From the NCBI GenBank assembly GCA_017654855.1, contig CM030333.1:2294001-2358000 (forward strand): 64,000 nucleotides of DNA, written 5' to 3'. This document shows, piece by piece, positions 39,379-46,240 of this stretch; within the stretch, counting starts at the first letter, position 1; every line of letters starts with the position of its first letter. The position numbers were made by a program, and so were the translations under genes. Origin of the DNA: Podospora anserina. Taxonomy: Eukaryota. The notes under the pieces were generated by a model. The model was not told the origin of the DNA. It ran no database searches and saw nothing but the letters and a program-made list of their open reading frames with translations.

Positions 39379-41199
39379 ATGAGCGCCTCCGAGTCGCAGG
39401 AGGCTGCGGGGAGGCCGCAATCTCCCCGCAGCTTTGCCATTGCGCACCAGAGGCCGAGAAGCAGCTTTGTCGGGTGCTCCAAGATTGCCGACTACGAGGT
39501 GTTGGGGAAACTGGGCGAGGGTACCTTTGGGTAGGTGGTGGTTCTTTTGCCTTCCCATCTTGGCCGTGTCCGAAGCTGACATTGTTGCCCTACACAGAGA
39601 GGTTTACCGCGCGAGATCGAGAAAGACGGGTGCTTTGGTTGCGCTCAAGAAGATCATCATGCATAACGAAAAGGATGGCTTTCCGATTACGGCATTGAGA
39701 GAAATCAAGCTGCTCAAGCTACTGTCGCATCCAAACATCCTCCGACTGGAGGATATGGCAGTGGAACACCCGCCCAGGAGTGGTGAGTTGATGCTATCTG
39801 TCGAGGAGGTTCCAGGACATGCATGGCTAACAGGCGCCCTTTGCCAGCGGACAAACGAAAGCGACCCATCATGTACATGGTCACGCCCTACATGGACCAT
39901 GACCTGTCGGGCTTGCTCGACAACCCCTCGGTGACATTGACCGAGCCGCAAATCAAGTGCTACATGCAGCAACTGCTCCAGGGCCTGGAGTATCTACACG
40001 CCAATCGCATTTTGCACAGAGATATGAAGGCTGCCAACCTGTTGATCAACAACAAGGGCATTCTTCAGATTGCTGATTTCGGTCTTGCGAGACACTACGA
40101 GGGCAAGACACCACAGCCTGGTCACGGCGGTGGGGAAGGAACGCGTGACTACACTGCTTTGGTGGTCACGCGCTGGTACCGCCCGCCCGAGTTGTTGATG
40201 CATCTCAAAAGATACACCACATCGATTGACTTGTGGGGAGTTGGGTAGGCAGCCTGTGGTCGGTTCTTTGTTGCAAGGGATCATGCTGACAATGTCCCTA
40301 GGTGTGTTTTTGGCGAGATGCTAGTTGGCAAGCCCATTCTCACCGGCGAATCTGATGGGCACCAGTTGGAGTTGATATGGGACCTCTGCGGTACGCCCAC
40401 CATCGAGACAATGCCTGGGTTGAAAGACTTGCCTGGAGCCGAAGCGATGTCACCCAAGCCGCGACAAGGTAACCTGGGGCAAAGGTTCAGAGAATACGGC
40501 TCGGGTGCCATCTCGTTACTTCGAGAGCTTCTCAAGCTGGACTGGAGGAGCAGAATCAACGCTCATGACGCCCTGCAGCACCCTTACTTCCGCAACCCCC
40601 CATATCCCGCCAAGCCAGAAGAACTGCCGTCTTTCGAAGAAAGTCACGAATATGATCGTAAGAAGTACCATGAGAAAAGAACCGTGTTGCCTCCAGCGCC
40701 CAGGGGCGGTACCGTGGGCCGCGGTCCCAACAATGACGGCGATGGCTACAGGAACAGCGGTGGCCCCGGCGGAAGAGGCTATCCTCGGAACAACAACAAC
40801 CGCAATTTTGGTGGTCCGGCCCCGGCACCAGACGAGCGAGTGCCCGCTTGGCACAGAGACACCAGGCTTCCACCGCGCCCACCTCCACCTGCAGACTATG
40901 GCAACGGCCGTGATCGAGCTCCTCGTGGAGGTGGCGGAGGAAATCGTCAGGACGTCGATACGTATATCCCCAGTTATGATAGGGACGCTCCAAGACGAGA
41001 CGATCGGCGGAGGGACGACAGGCGAGACCGCGGAGGCCCAGGGGACAGGAGGAGGGGGGATTATGATGACCGCACAAGGAGCAATCGCACGCGCAGCAGA
41101 AGTCGGTCACCTCTGCCGCCAAGAGACCGCGATAGGGACAGGGACAGGGACAGGGACAGAGATCGGCCACCTCGCGATGGTCCACCGCATCCTAGATAG
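39379..41199 (+). CDS. BUR1: Bur1/Sgv1 (CDK9-like) cyclin-dependent kinase
   Basis: [37 protein letters not shown] (PITALRE), [29 protein letters not shown] and an RD/RS-rich tail. Three introns. Stop TAG 41197-41199. Confidence 0.95.
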
Positions 41200-41953
41200 G
41201 TTCAGGGTCGCAGAGGCCAGGAGCAGGGATACGGACGTAATCCCCGTCGGTAGGGAGGTGGGAATACCAAACGGGGCTCCAGGCGCTCGGGGGAGAATGA
41301 GCAACCCAGACCGGGGTCTGGCGGTCATGAGCAGAGGCCTGAGGGGGGAGGGGGGTTGGGTGGCTCTACATCACGGGCTGGACGTCAAAGCAATCCGGCA
41401 CCAGTAGCAAACAGGAGGCGAATCCCATTGTACAGTCCTGATAGACCTATTCCATCGATTGAAGCAGAGCCGCTAGCACCCTCACAATTGCGCCCGTCAC
41501 GCTCGCCGTCACGCTCGTTGTCACTCAACTCATGCAATCGACAATTGCTCGTCCAAGCAAGCGGCCGAAGCCGATCTTTTGCTTCTGGTGATTTTTCGGA
41601 TCCGGAGCTGCCTGCAGACCCACCACGTAGACAATCTCTTCTTTCTCGGGTCGTTCAGCCTGAGGATGTAGTTGAGCAAGCACCCGAGGAGACAGCTGAG
41701 CAACCATCCGAGGACGCAGCGGAGAGACCACGGCAGCGTGTTAAATTACCGCCTTTGCCATCACCGCTCGGATCGTCGGTCGAAAGACTTCTTGGGCTGA
41801 GAACAGCCAGTGAGTCCTTGGATCTGAGTCTAGGAACAAGCAGGGCTCGGGCTGGCATAGCCAGGTCGAGGGTGCTGGCTGATGAGGACGGCTCGTCCGC
41901 AGTGGTGACTCGCCCTCGTTCGCATCAGCATCATCCGGGAGGCGGAATCGGGG

Positions 41954-42844
41954 ATGTTTAGGGGGGTGGGTTGGAGACGCCGGCATAGTCAAGAAGAGAT
42001 TGAGCGGGCGGCTAGGGTGTTGGGTATGCCGGTGCCGGTGCCGGGGTCAAGGGGAAGCAGTAGAGGGAGGGTTCTTCCGACTGATGGTGGGTGGGAGAGG
42101 TGCTCTACGTCGAGTTCGGGAGAGGTGGAGAGTACACGACCGTCGGTGGTGCCGCCGCGGAGAAGTGGGCAGAGAAGAAGTCGGAGGCCGGGTGATGGTT
42201 GGGAGGCGGATGATGAGTTGCGGAAGGGGTCGGGAGAGAGGTCGGAGGAGGAAATTGCCTGGTCGGTGGGGCCTGAGGAACGGCCGAGCACACCGCCGAG
42301 GGTTGGGTTTTGTGAGGGTGAGGGTGGTGAGGAGGGGGGTGGTGAGCAAGAGGGGAGTGGTGAAGAGGATGGTGGTGAGCAAGGAGAAAAGGGTGGTGAT
42401 GATAAGAAGAGAAAGAGGTCGAGGTCTCCTGGCGGGTCTGAGAGGCAAGGCAAGAAGAGAAGGAGGGGGTCAAAACCACCGTCTGCTGAAGCGTCTGAGG
42501 AGTCAGAGGTTGACTTGAATGATAATCCGTCTGCTGAAGCACCAGAGGAGCGGTCTGATGTCGAAATGGATGATGAGGAAGTTGATGATGAACCGGCTGA
42601 GGAGCAGGCCGAGGTTCAAATGGATGACGAGCAAACTGATGATGAATCCCCTGCTCAACCACAAGCCCCTCCTCAAGCTCAACCCCCTCCTCCACCTCAA
42701 CTTCCTCCTCAACCAAGCCCTGTCACGAGACGATCAACAAGGAGCAGTACCGCACGGGAGCCTGGTTTCTATGCTGAGGTAAACACGAGCACTGGGCGTA
42801 AGAACAGTAGTAGAAATAATCACTGGCGCGGGAGATTCGGGTGA
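41954..42844 (+). CDS. Low-complexity acidic/basic ORF (296 aa), either an orphan gene or the distal part of a BUR1 extension
   Basis: Long ORF with NLS-like KKRKRSRS and GKKRRR, and internally repeated PSAEA(S/P)EE…V(E/Q)MDDE units. No recognisable domain. Confidence 0.4.
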   Translation: MFRGVGWRRRHSQEEIERAARVLGMPVPVPGSRGSSRGRVLPTDGGWERCSTSSSGEVESTRPSVVPPRRSGQRRSRRPGDGWEADDELRKGSGERSEEEIAWSVGPEERPSTPPRVGFCEGEGGEEGGGEQEGSGEEDGGEQGEKGGDDKKRKRSRSPGGSERQGKKRRRGSKPPSAEASEESEVDLNDNPSAEAPEERSDVEMDDEEVDDEPAEEQAEVQMDDEQTDDESPAQPQAPPQAQPPPPPQLPPQPSPVTRRSTRSSTAREPGFYAEVNTSTGRKNSSRNNHWRGRFG

Positions 42845-43288
42845 TTAGGATATAGACACCCAGAAAAGCGTGAATTTTGGTGTGGCTTGCAGCTGGCTTC
42901 TGGAATTTGGTCAACAAGCGAGGAGTATTAGTAATGTGTAAAAGTCATGTTTGGAGAGGGTTTTAGATGCATTCTGAAAGTGTCTGCGTGTGGTTTTCTT
43001 CAGAGTAAGTTCGAAAGAACGGAGGAGAATTGCATACTTGTTTTCAGGTTGTGCAGCCATTTCAACATCGTGTTCAGTTGTGAATGTAACCTTGTGCGAT
43101 ACTGGTGCTGTTGATGTTATAGTGAATTCTCTCGCAAGTAGTTACGTCTCTGAATGACCATCCCCAGCCCCATCACGTCACAACAAAAACTCATCTTCTT
43201 CCATCCAAGTCAGAATCAAATTACTACTACGCTTTTAAAACCGAACCTCTGTATCAACCACCCCTCCTTCTAGTCCCTCACCCCATCA

Positions 43289-44383
43289 TCAAAACAACGA
43301 ACCAAACCACCCTTCCGTCTCCTCCACCCTCTCACGCACCTCCTCCTCTTTGTCCTCTTCACTCTCACCCCCAGCCCCCTCCTCCTCATCCGCTTCATAC
43401 TCCTTCTCCTTCTTAATCTCCTTACTTACCCTCCTATTCTGTTCCAACATTGAAAAGGGCTTATCCCGACTATACCCCCGCTTCTTCTTGTTCTTCTTAT
43501 CCACATCCCCCTCATACGCTTTAATCTCCTCAGCTTCCTTTATCTTGTTTAATATACTTGTCAGTTCCGGCTCCGCTTCCTCGTCATTCTTGACAATAAT
43601 CTCTTCCCTCCCCTTCTTCAACCTCTTCCTCGCGCTACTCCCCAACTTCTTCTTCGTGGCAGTAGTCTCACTCTCCACAGCAACATCCTCCCCCATTAAA
43701 TACTTCAAATCATCACCCCCAAACCCCTCACCCTGAAACTCATTCTTCCCCTTGACCTTCTTCCTCTTCTGCTTCTTCTTGTTCCTCACCCCTTCCCCCT
43801 TCCCCCCACCAGCTTCGGTCCCAGCAATATCACTCTCCCTCTCATCCCAATCCCCCCTCTCCTTCCCACTCCCCTCCCCCTCAACCTCCTCAATAACCCC
43901 CAAATCCAACATCGCCAACCCAGCCTCGTCGACTCTCTCCTTCCACCCCATCCCCCGTCTCGTATCGCCATACATCGTCCCCACCACAAACGGCATACCC
44001 TTCCTCCTTTCAAACTCCCACTCCTCCCACCACCCATCCCACCTCCTCTTGTCCTCCCCCACCGTCAACTGTATCCTCCTCCTCAACCACCTCCAATCCA
44101 CCCCCGTCTGACGACAAAAAGCCTGCTCCGTATCCAGCAGCACCGTCCGATGCGGCGCCAGAAAGCAGATAACATCCCAAATCAACGCCGGGGCAAAATG
44201 CCTGTAGCCGATCGCCACAAAATAGTACAGCACCCTCAAGACAAGTAAAAACGGCGTGGCGACAAAGAGCAAAAGCCGGAGAAGATACCTCAGAATGGAG
44301 CCAACAAGGGAAAAGACGCCGAGGAGGTAGGAAATCACCTAGTATATGACGAGGAGGAGTGCAATCAGTCCAACAATCTTGTG
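43289..44383 (-). other. In-frame continuation of the 45117 gene beyond TAG (hydrophobic segments plus charged tail), broken only by TAG 44339-44341
   Basis: HKIVGLIALLLVIY*VISYLLGVFSLVGSILRYLLRLL… runs open to TGA 43289-43291. It has no ATG near its 5' end. Confidence 0.6.
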
Positions 44384-45117
44384 CTACGCTGATGATTCGG
44401 ACGAGGAAGAAGGGGAGACGAGGTTGGACGAGGATTCCTCGTGGATCGTCTCTGTCAGTAACCCCTGAAGCCGAGGTTTCTGAGGGCGTTGCTTGATGGA
44501 GGCGGCGGGGATCAAAAAGTTGGCTTGGTTGGAGGATGACATGACGGCTGTTGTGGCGCTGCTGTCCCAGGGGTCGTCGTCGGTTCCAAAGGATAGGGAG
44601 CTGGTGCTGTCGACCGAGCCGGGAGTAACGGGGAGGTCCATTTTTTGCTGTTTGTATGTCATGGCGCCTGGAGGTTTGTTGGGGGTGGCAGTCCGCTTAG
44701 GGGTGCTGGTGCTGGTGCTGGTGCTGGTGAGGGCTAGGAATTGTTCTGTGATGAACACTATGAGGGCGCCGGTTGTGAAGCCTATTACTGCTGCGTAGAG
44801 GAGCTGACGATCAAGTCAGTAGGAACCGTCAGAGATGCATAAGGATCACGTACCAAGATGGGCAACGGCTTAAGCTCCAGAAAGATATGGATTACAATCC
44901 CGAACGGGGCTGTCGCCAAGTTGAAGACGGCTCTAGTAGGAGAGATGATGAAGAATGAAATCACACTCCAGATTGTCTGCAAACTCCAAATGGTGACAGT
45001 CTTGGTAATCAACCAAGGCCAATACAAGGTACCGAAGATGGTCCTGAGCAGCGTGAGACTGGTTCTCTCGGAAACGGGGGCGGTGGTGCTGTTGACGAGA
45101 ACAGTGAGAGGGTCCAT
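44384..45117 (-). CDS. Hypothetical membrane protein, about 227 aa
   Basis: MDPLTVLVNSTT… with hydrophobic helices. Intron 44804-44853 (GTACGT…CTGAC…CAG) keeps frame (PLPIL|LLYAAVIGF). Ends …GLLTETIHEESSSNLVSPSSSSESSA TAG 44384-44386. Confidence 0.7.
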
Positions 45118-45151
45118 AGTCGAGCTACCGCAGATATAAACGAGTGTTGGA

Positions 45152-45197
45152 GTTGTTGTTGTTGTTGTTGTTGTTGTGGTGGTGGTGGTGGTGGTGG
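45152..45197. repeat. (GTT)n(GGT)n microsatellite
   Basis: gttgttgtt…gtggtggtggtg read directly. Confidence 0.85.
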
Positions 45198-45793
45198 GTG
45201 AAATGCTACTGGATACTTCGCGGGGGCATCTTGACAGTGGAGGTGACGGGAGATGCAGTGTAAGCGGCTGCAAGGTGTTGAGGCAAGAGCGACTACTTCT
45301 CGGAGTCCATTGCTGGTGCCTTCTCAACAGCGACGGCGGGATGCAAATGCCATCCGAAAGTGCAGGCACGATGGGTGTCATGTGTAAGTGTGATGTCCAG
45401 AGCCTCCTTCCTTGGAATGCATGTAATCATGGGTGATGATGCACGACCGGCAGTGACGGGACAGGGGGGGCTCCTGGGCAGTGATGCAGGGGAGGGAGAA
45501 TGAATTGTGGGGCAGGGCCAAGGTAACTTTTGAGACCCCGGTATTAGCATATCGATTTGAGCTTCACATCAAGGTTTATGAAGTGAACCTTGAATTCTTA
45601 TTCTCACAACGACAGAACTATTCTGAAACCTACTTATTCAAAGCAGGAAATTCATCTGAACATTTCACTCTCAGTAGCTTAATCTTCTCAGCAAATTGAG
45701 ATATATCAACTCTTCTCACCAGCGACTCAACCCACACTCACAAACACCAGCAACATCACCACTCAACTTAACCAACCACCACCTATAACCACC

Positions 45794-46240
45794 ATGACCG
45801 AAGCAATGGATCTCGACCCCCCTCCCCCCACCAGCACCACCTCCCTCCCCAAACCCAAAACCTCCAAACCCCTCCTCACCACCCTAACCCTCCCCACACC
45901 CCCCTTCTCCTACGCCAACCTCACCTTTCTAACCCCCTCCCCCTCCACAACCCAGCAACAGCTCGACCCCCTCCTCCTGAAATCCTACCTAACCTCCGCT
46001 TTATCTCAATTCCTCGGCCAAACCGGCGCCGCCATCCCAATCGACATCCTCCAAGTCGGCCCTGCCTCCTCCTGGGTCCGCCTCCCCCGCCCCGACCTCG
46101 CCGCATTCACCGCAGCAATCGCCTCATTCAGCGGTCTAAACAACGGGAAAGAAAAACTGGTGCTCAGAGTAGAGGCAGCCGGGGATTTCCTCGGGGCTCT
46201 TGTCGGCAGAGGGGAGGAACGTGAGATTTGGGGAAAGTGA
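45794..46240 (+). CDS. POP8: RNase P/MRP subunit Pop8-like protein
   Basis: PFSYANL…LDPLLLKSYLTSALSQFLGQTGAAIPIDIL…WVRLPRPDLAAFTAAI…AGDFLGAL resembles fungal Pop8. Single exon. Confidence 0.75.
   Translation: MTEAMDLDPPPPTSTTSLPKPKTSKPLLTTLTLPTPPFSYANLTFLTPSPSTTQQQLDPLLLKSYLTSALSQFLGQTGAAIPIDILQVGPASSWVRLPRPDLAAFTAAIASFSGLNNGKEKLVLRVEAAGDFLGALVGRGEEREIWGK

Follow-up and report, generated by a model that had tools for sequence, protein, structure and literature searches.

Organization of the locus

The gene described herein raises the question of whether, and by what route, a protein can be made from a reading frame that lies behind two in-frame stop codons. The locus is found on the minus strand of a 64,000 nt stretch of Podospora anserina DNA (GCA_017654855.1, contig CM030333.1, positions 2,294,001 to 2,358,000), hereafter the window, to which all coordinates refer. 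Exon 1 (44854..45117) comprises 88 codons from the ATG at 45117 (MDPLTV...), and is separated by the 50 nt intron 1 (44804..44853, GTACGT..CTGAC..CAG) from exon 2, the upstream part of which (44387..44803) contains 139 codons and ends ...SESSA. This is followed by the first in-frame TAG (44384..44386, codon 228), a hydrophobic segment of 14 sense codons (44342..44383, HKIVGLIALLLVIY), the second in-frame TAG (44339..44341, codon 243) and a downstream open reading frame of 349 codons (43292..44338), which shares one and the same frame with the upstream one and is closed by a TGA (43289..43291). Read literally, the mRNA yields a membrane protein of 227 aa that terminates at the first UAG, whilst reading both TAGs as Trp (from the same ATG, with intron 1 removed) yields a protein of 592 residues.

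The downstream frame displays transmembrane-like helices, a conserved Trp/Arg-rich block (VDWRW...DKRRWDGWWEE) and a Lys/Glu-rich tail, with its first in-frame ATG occurring only at codon 115 (43996). The highest Kyte–Doolittle peak of the entire 592-codon reading (19-aa mean of 2.66) covers residues 226–259 and spans the second TAG, with this hydropathy profile suggesting that the stop falls within a transmembrane helix. As such, the original prediction was accurate with regard to the positions of the stops, the 14 codons between them and the 349 open codons up to the TGA, the approximate product lengths of 227 and 590 aa, the hydrophobic segment across the second stop, and the lack of an ATG close to the start of the downstream frame. 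The long product is predicted to be a multi-pass membrane protein with a charged tail. No Pfam domain is detected above threshold (BRI3BP remains below it, with a score of 17 bits where 27 are required), a PDB sequence search returns no match below an E-value of 0.6, and Rfam reveals no match within window positions 42800–45800. A literature search using the presumed locus name likewise returned nothing.

An additional in-frame ATG (45381..45379, minus strand) is located 88 codons 5′ of the ATG at 45117. It serves as the start in the gene models of P. pseudocomata, P. pseudopauciseta and T. verruculosa, but not in those of P. bellae-mahoneyi, T. setosa and A. backusii, and only a contig from run X7 (see below) extends 5′ as far as 45377. 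Two repeats, described here on the plus strand, are present in the 5′ region and in exon 2: (GTT)8.7 at 45141–45204 and (GGTGCT)4.7 at 44702–44729, respectively. These encode Thr and Ser-Thr runs, the lengths of which vary among the proteins of sister species; both repeats were skipped during contig placement.

Transcription across both stop codons

Contigs were available from four runs of four studies (X1, X5, X6 and X7), none of which is recorded as RNA, and for which the developmental stage is unrecorded. In X1, X5 and X7, representing three studies, contigs contain a joint (44803>44854) that skips exactly the 50 nt of intron 1 and connects exons 1 and 2; this joint is the sole basis on which they are considered to be RNA-derived. 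The contigs of these three runs are colinear from exon 1, over both TAGs, to positions 43839, 43900 and 44127, and the X6 contig also crosses both TAGs, but with intron 1 retained. A joint over the TAGs, including at an 81 nt GT..AG span that is considered below, is present in none of the four runs. The colinear, spliced contigs thus indicate that a single transcript contains both halves of the gene, and that the 81 nt span is kept in its major form. The original prediction had named two observations that would count against it: the absence of a transcript over the TAGs, and an independent start with an upstream ATG exon for the downstream frame. In both respects the opposite is found, as contigs cross both TAGs together with the spliced upstream exon, and there is no ATG for the conserved start of the downstream frame.

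Both stop codons carry A at the relevant position in the crossing contigs of all four runs, with no other letter observed, in assemblies that drop minority variants. This agreement demonstrates that the TAGs are not an assembly slip. Due to the loss of minority variants, and to the unrecorded stage of the runs, the absence of G, although the one direct view of the two sites, constitutes weak evidence against editing. Contigs that bear the end of the downstream frame stop at 43070–43128 in four runs, which is 161–219 nt past the TGA; this weakly suggests that the transcript end is that of the long frame, with a probable 3′ UTR at 43070..43288. The region at approximately 43750–43838 has no contig cover. 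An apparent joint at 43413>43479 was set aside as low-complexity cross-matching, as it derives from long foreign contigs that match over 20–33 nt with 5 mismatches.

Coding capacity of the downstream frame

Same-frame pairs of open reading frames are not rare in this DNA, as 24 cases occur in the 64 kb window in which two open stretches, each of ≥ 100 codons, are interrupted by a single stop or by a pair of stops no more than 20 codons apart. For this reason the case made here rests on homology and RNA, rather than on the length of the reading frame. The downstream frame has a GC3 of 0.68, compared with 0.69–0.70 in the upstream exons, and contains no stops, whereas the two alternative frames of the same region contain 14 and 26. 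Together with homologues in other genera, this establishes the downstream frame as real coding sequence.

Conservation of the split gene in the Podosporaceae

An exhaustive search of 1.84 billion representatives returned six proteins with an E-value ≤ 0.001, of which the named ones all belong to the Podosporaceae, whilst word-indexed searches gave 2, 2 and 5 matches (the last being a profile search). No protein from any of these searches covers the inter-stop segment, and exhaustive, word-indexed and profile searching alike yielded no more distant, intact orthologue in which Trp occupies the stop positions. Two scans of metagenome contigs generated 594 and 237 pattern matches, with no relative among them. 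Within the P. anserina species complex, the window proteins are 96–98 % identical to their counterparts, and the downstream frame is intact in all of the complex sequences retrieved (P0004, P0006 and P0011–P0015).

Beyond the species complex, the two halves are annotated apart. The N-terminal half stands alone as proteins of 224 aa in Triangularia setosa (P0016), 293 aa in T. verruculosa (P0005) and 195 aa in Apiosordaria backusii (P0008), to which the window N-half is 54–57 % identical. As judged from the protein models, these N-halves share their end column with that of the window species (...S-x-A, then stop), so that a stop at the position of the first TAG is common to all four species. 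As this stop column spans three genera, the split is old. Homologues of the downstream frame comprise P0007, P0009, P0006 and P0013–P0015, with 39–51 % identity between genera; that to T. setosa P0007 reaches 51 % over 128 aa (E-value 4 × 10−40). The P0007 alignment begins at codon 30 of the downstream frame, 85 codons before its first ATG. In A. backusii the C-half (P0009) has an accession adjoining that of P0008, and resides on the same contig; in T. setosa P0007 shares a contig with P0016, is flagged 'partial' and begins without Met. A Met present in A. backusii and T. setosa aligns to approximately codon 66 of the downstream frame, where the window has Leu.

The situation is different in the three annotated sister species, P. 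pseudocomata, P. pseudopauciseta and P. bellae-mahoneyi, the models of which join both halves and omit exactly 27 residues. This gap corresponds to the 81 nt span (44339..44419, minus strand, GTCTCC..TACTAG) that includes both TAGs. As the sister annotations were produced by a single MAKER pipeline with ab initio predictors (PMC10936905), they cannot be viewed as three independent observations. The P. pseudopauciseta model also ends ...SLFDDGVRD, rather than in ...SLF followed by the stop, at window positions 43289–43300 (minus strand), which suggests a one-base length difference immediately before the terminal TGA in that species.

Retention of the split in Triangularia and Apiosordaria, alongside a conserved downstream protein, points to recoding rather than decay. 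The locus had been put forward at the outset as a candidate for editing or readthrough; the conserved split and the downstream protein do favour recoding, although the contigs read A at both sites, and editing and readthrough are candidate mechanisms.

Alternative explanations for the downstream frame

The sister-species models raise the possibility that the 81 nt span is an intron spliced in a stage-specific manner, thereby removing both stops, with the unspliced form dominating in the runs examined. The span possesses GT..AG ends, a length divisible by three, a body rich in pyrimidines and a branch-like motif, CTGAT, and the contigs reveal only the major form of the transcript. Nevertheless, its joint occurs in none of the four runs, as opposed to that of intron 1, which is made in three of the four on the same contigs. 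The fungal donor consensus is GTRNGT, and the GTCTCC donor lacks both the +3 purine and the +5 G of the two confirmed introns in the window (GTACGT and GTAGGC). Nor is this donor conserved, given that T. setosa and A. backusii have Pro in place of the Val whose codon provides its GT. Moreover, the first 11 supposedly intronic codons show in-frame conservation as far as the shared stop column in all four species, and the presence of the intron in the models of all three sister species is diminished by their common automated origin. Such splicing is accordingly rated as quite unlikely. The original prediction had considered a single GT..AG candidate of 49 nt, which does shift the frame into a TGA as claimed, but is not the only candidate: a total of 15 in-frame GT..AG spans of 45–300 nt remove both TAGs, none of them with a GTRNGT-type donor. 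Its view that splicing does not rescue the frame is upheld for the 81 nt span by RNA and conservation, although the 49 nt argument had overlooked that span. The other 14 in-frame spans were dismissed, having poor donors and no counterpart in the RNA contigs.

An unlikely, if more plausible, explanation is that two products are made without editing, namely the 227 aa N-half and a separately translated C-half that would arise via an internal transcript with a non-AUG start, from Met115, or by reinitiation. The annotation of two adjacent genes in other genera is in keeping with this, as are the conservation of the N-half in its own right and the Met of A. backusii and T. setosa near codon 66. That Met is, however, a Leu in the window, which offers no ATG before codon 115, whereas conservation with T. 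setosa is already apparent from codon 30 and covers transmembrane helices in a model that is itself partial and without a start. In addition, the two frames are in register, and the contigs continue uninterrupted from exon 1 into the downstream frame. The latter two properties, an uninterrupted mRNA and a frame that is maintained, would equally suit translational readthrough by near-cognate tRNAs at both UAGs, which would provide a little long protein at all stages. High-readthrough contexts include UAG-CAR-YYA and UGA-CUA, and by-eye comparison finds the codons after the two stops (CAC-AAG and GUG-AUU) to be unlike these. Two successive events would also multiply two small efficiencies, making this route improbable, despite the PaYIP3 frameshift providing a precedent for translational recoding in Podospora (PMC3777964). 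Finally, the gene may be decaying, with the nonsense mutations being terminal and the downstream frame a relic that is still unbroken. Whilst the lack of an edited letter in the RNA contigs and the small size of a family restricted to the Podosporaceae would fit such a relic, the age of a stop column shared by four species, the identity that the still open downstream frame retains between genera, and its integrity throughout the Podospora complex render decay very unlikely.

Editing of both UAG codons as the preferred explanation

The explanation preferred here, with a probability of roughly one in two, is that A-to-I editing in the sexual stage converts UAG to UGG and so makes the long protein. 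One gene would produce one mRNA containing both halves; in perithecia or asci, ADAT-type A-to-I editing would then convert both UAGs to UIG, to be read as Trp. The ribosome would continue through the 14 further codons, and then through 349 more, to generate a product of 592 aa with extra transmembrane helices, the conserved Trp/Arg-rich block and the long Lys/Glu-rich tail. We infer that the recoding would be by editing, would take place at both sites and would be specific to the sexual stage. Because the long product would require two editing events on one mRNA molecule, it could be made in small amounts.

A number of properties of the locus are in accordance with editing. Of the three stop codons, TAG is the only one turned into Trp by a single A-to-I change, and both internal stops are TAG, whilst the final stop is TGA. 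Each site has U at −1 and G at +1, in line with the preference of editing sites for U at −1 and A or G at +1; in Fusarium graminearum, U occupies −1 at 85.7 % of editing sites and the preferred triplets are UAG and UAA (PMC4817773). The UAGs lie in a transcribed, unspliced exon (in X1, X5 and X7, with their intron 1 joint, and in X6 too), and the frame past them is conserved coding sequence that is continuous with the upstream frame. Conserved premature stops are, similarly, reported for functional PSC genes (PMC10776026). False introns annotated over the stops are described as a signature of edited F. graminearum genes, namely PUK1 and a further 69 (PMC4817773), to which the three sister annotations, bridging the stops with a non-consensus intron, correspond. 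Genes with two sites are also on record, in the form of PUK1 and six of the 71 PSC genes (PMC4817773, PMC10776026). Sexual-stage A-to-I editing is the established means of recoding stops in Sordariomycetes; besides the two UAGs of PUK1, it is reported to change premature UAGs to UGG in some 70 more F. graminearum genes, with such stops being retained in evolution (PMC4817773, PMC10776026, PMC11156358). A-to-I editing has been demonstrated in Neurospora and Sordaria, both within the Sordariales (PMC11156358), and a preprint describes expression of ADAT genes during the sexual cycle of Podospora. No published case of mRNA editing in Podospora was found in the literature.

Local folding is less favourable. 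When 61 nt segments are folded by minimum free energy, a size also used previously (PMC4817773), both of the A residues lie in weak stems rather than in hairpin loops, with z-scores of +0.60 and +0.72 relative to shuffled sequences; segments shorter than 61 nt give inconsistent folds. As the edited A occupies a stable hairpin loop at approximately 62 % of sites, which is a preference, this counts mildly against editing. Overall, the locus matches the known picture of editing point by point, except for an observed A>G change. A broader proposal is that of a developmental switch across the Podosporaceae, in which the short protein would be vegetative and the long one, more than twice its length, would be formed only upon recoding of both UAGs, with the boldest variant invoking programmed double readthrough or a non-ADAT route. 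This is regarded as very doubtful, but filamentous fungi would, if that variant were true, possess a type of recoding that is new for them.

Comparison with known systems

The nearest parallel to the editing proposed here is PUK1 (FGRRES_01058 in F. graminearum, with NCU03242 as its Neurospora orthologue), which also harbours two in-frame UAGs in an exon hidden by a false annotated intron (PMC4817773). The PUK1 UAGs are reported to be corrected to UGG only in perithecia (PMC4817773), whereas editing of the Podospora locus is a proposal. There is no sequence relationship between the two genes, and their arrangement differs as well: the PUK1 stops are in tandem within a kinase domain, whilst those of Podospora lie at a distance of 15 codons from one another, within the gene of a membrane protein that lacks a Pfam domain. 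Further similarities exist to the PSC ('restorative editing') pseudogenes of F. graminearum, which possess a premature UAG, a stop that is conserved and, in many instances, disordered regions, and a large number of which encode hypothetical proteins (PMC10776026). One example, AMD1, is an MFS membrane protein (PMC5496914). As the Podospora family is confined to the Podosporaceae in the searches, its gene does not appear to be orthologous to any of the listed PSC genes.

In the case of rfk-1 from Neurospora Sk-2, an early UAG specifies a short product, and its editing to UIG lets translation proceed to a later stop, generating a long product with a different activity (10.1101/2020.12.30.424869). 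That gene, however, has one site and an extension of 28 aa, compared with two sites and 365 codons in Podospora, and nothing suggests a killer function for the latter. In stop-loss editing, of which FgDBF2 is an example, the stop of a functional protein is edited to add a C-terminal extension (PMC13123824). Conservation of the 227 aa N-half suggests that it is functional in itself, in which case a change of its UAG by editing would formally count as a stop-loss event. The Podospora extension nonetheless exceeds the core protein in length and shows conservation between genera at the protein level, making it atypical of the stop-loss extensions described.

Implications

Detection of G at the two positions in perithecial RNA would provide a clear example of stop-correcting mRNA editing in Podospora, a fungus in which sexual development has classically been studied. 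Stop-correcting editing is in itself a known mechanism, for which the locus is a well-supported candidate; if confirmed, it would add a case with two sites and a conserved extension of 365 codons. Since the stop position is kept across genera, with some 350 conserved codons behind it, the gene forms a good test case for the debate, still conducted in papers of 2024–2026, as to whether stop-codon editing is adaptive. There are also consequences for annotation, in that three published models from sister species would contain a false intron that deletes 27 residues, and the Triangularia and Apiosordaria models would be halves of one gene; in total, at least six published gene models would be in need of correction.

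Neighbouring loci

A CDK-like protein kinase gene is situated at 39787–41196 on the plus strand (Pfam Pkinase, E-value 2 × 10−32). An in-frame TAG at 40246–40248 was discounted as a recoding case, as it resides within an ordinary intron (GTAGGC..GCTGAC..CTAG) that splits the DLWGVG|CVFGEM motif; this is consequently a same-frame pair of open reading frames that needs no recoding. Beyond the Arg/Asp-rich tail of the kinase, and in the kinase frame, the region at 41197–41961 (plus strand) contains two TAGs 17 codons apart (approximately 41197 and 41251), with around 235 open codons behind them. Such an arrangement could have arisen by chance where sequence complexity is low, or could represent a second candidate for stop loss. 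On the other side of the membrane protein gene lies a divergent neighbour (45794–46237, plus strand), which is a homologue of Pop8, a subunit of RNase P/MRP (Pfam PF20976, E-value 3 × 10−23).
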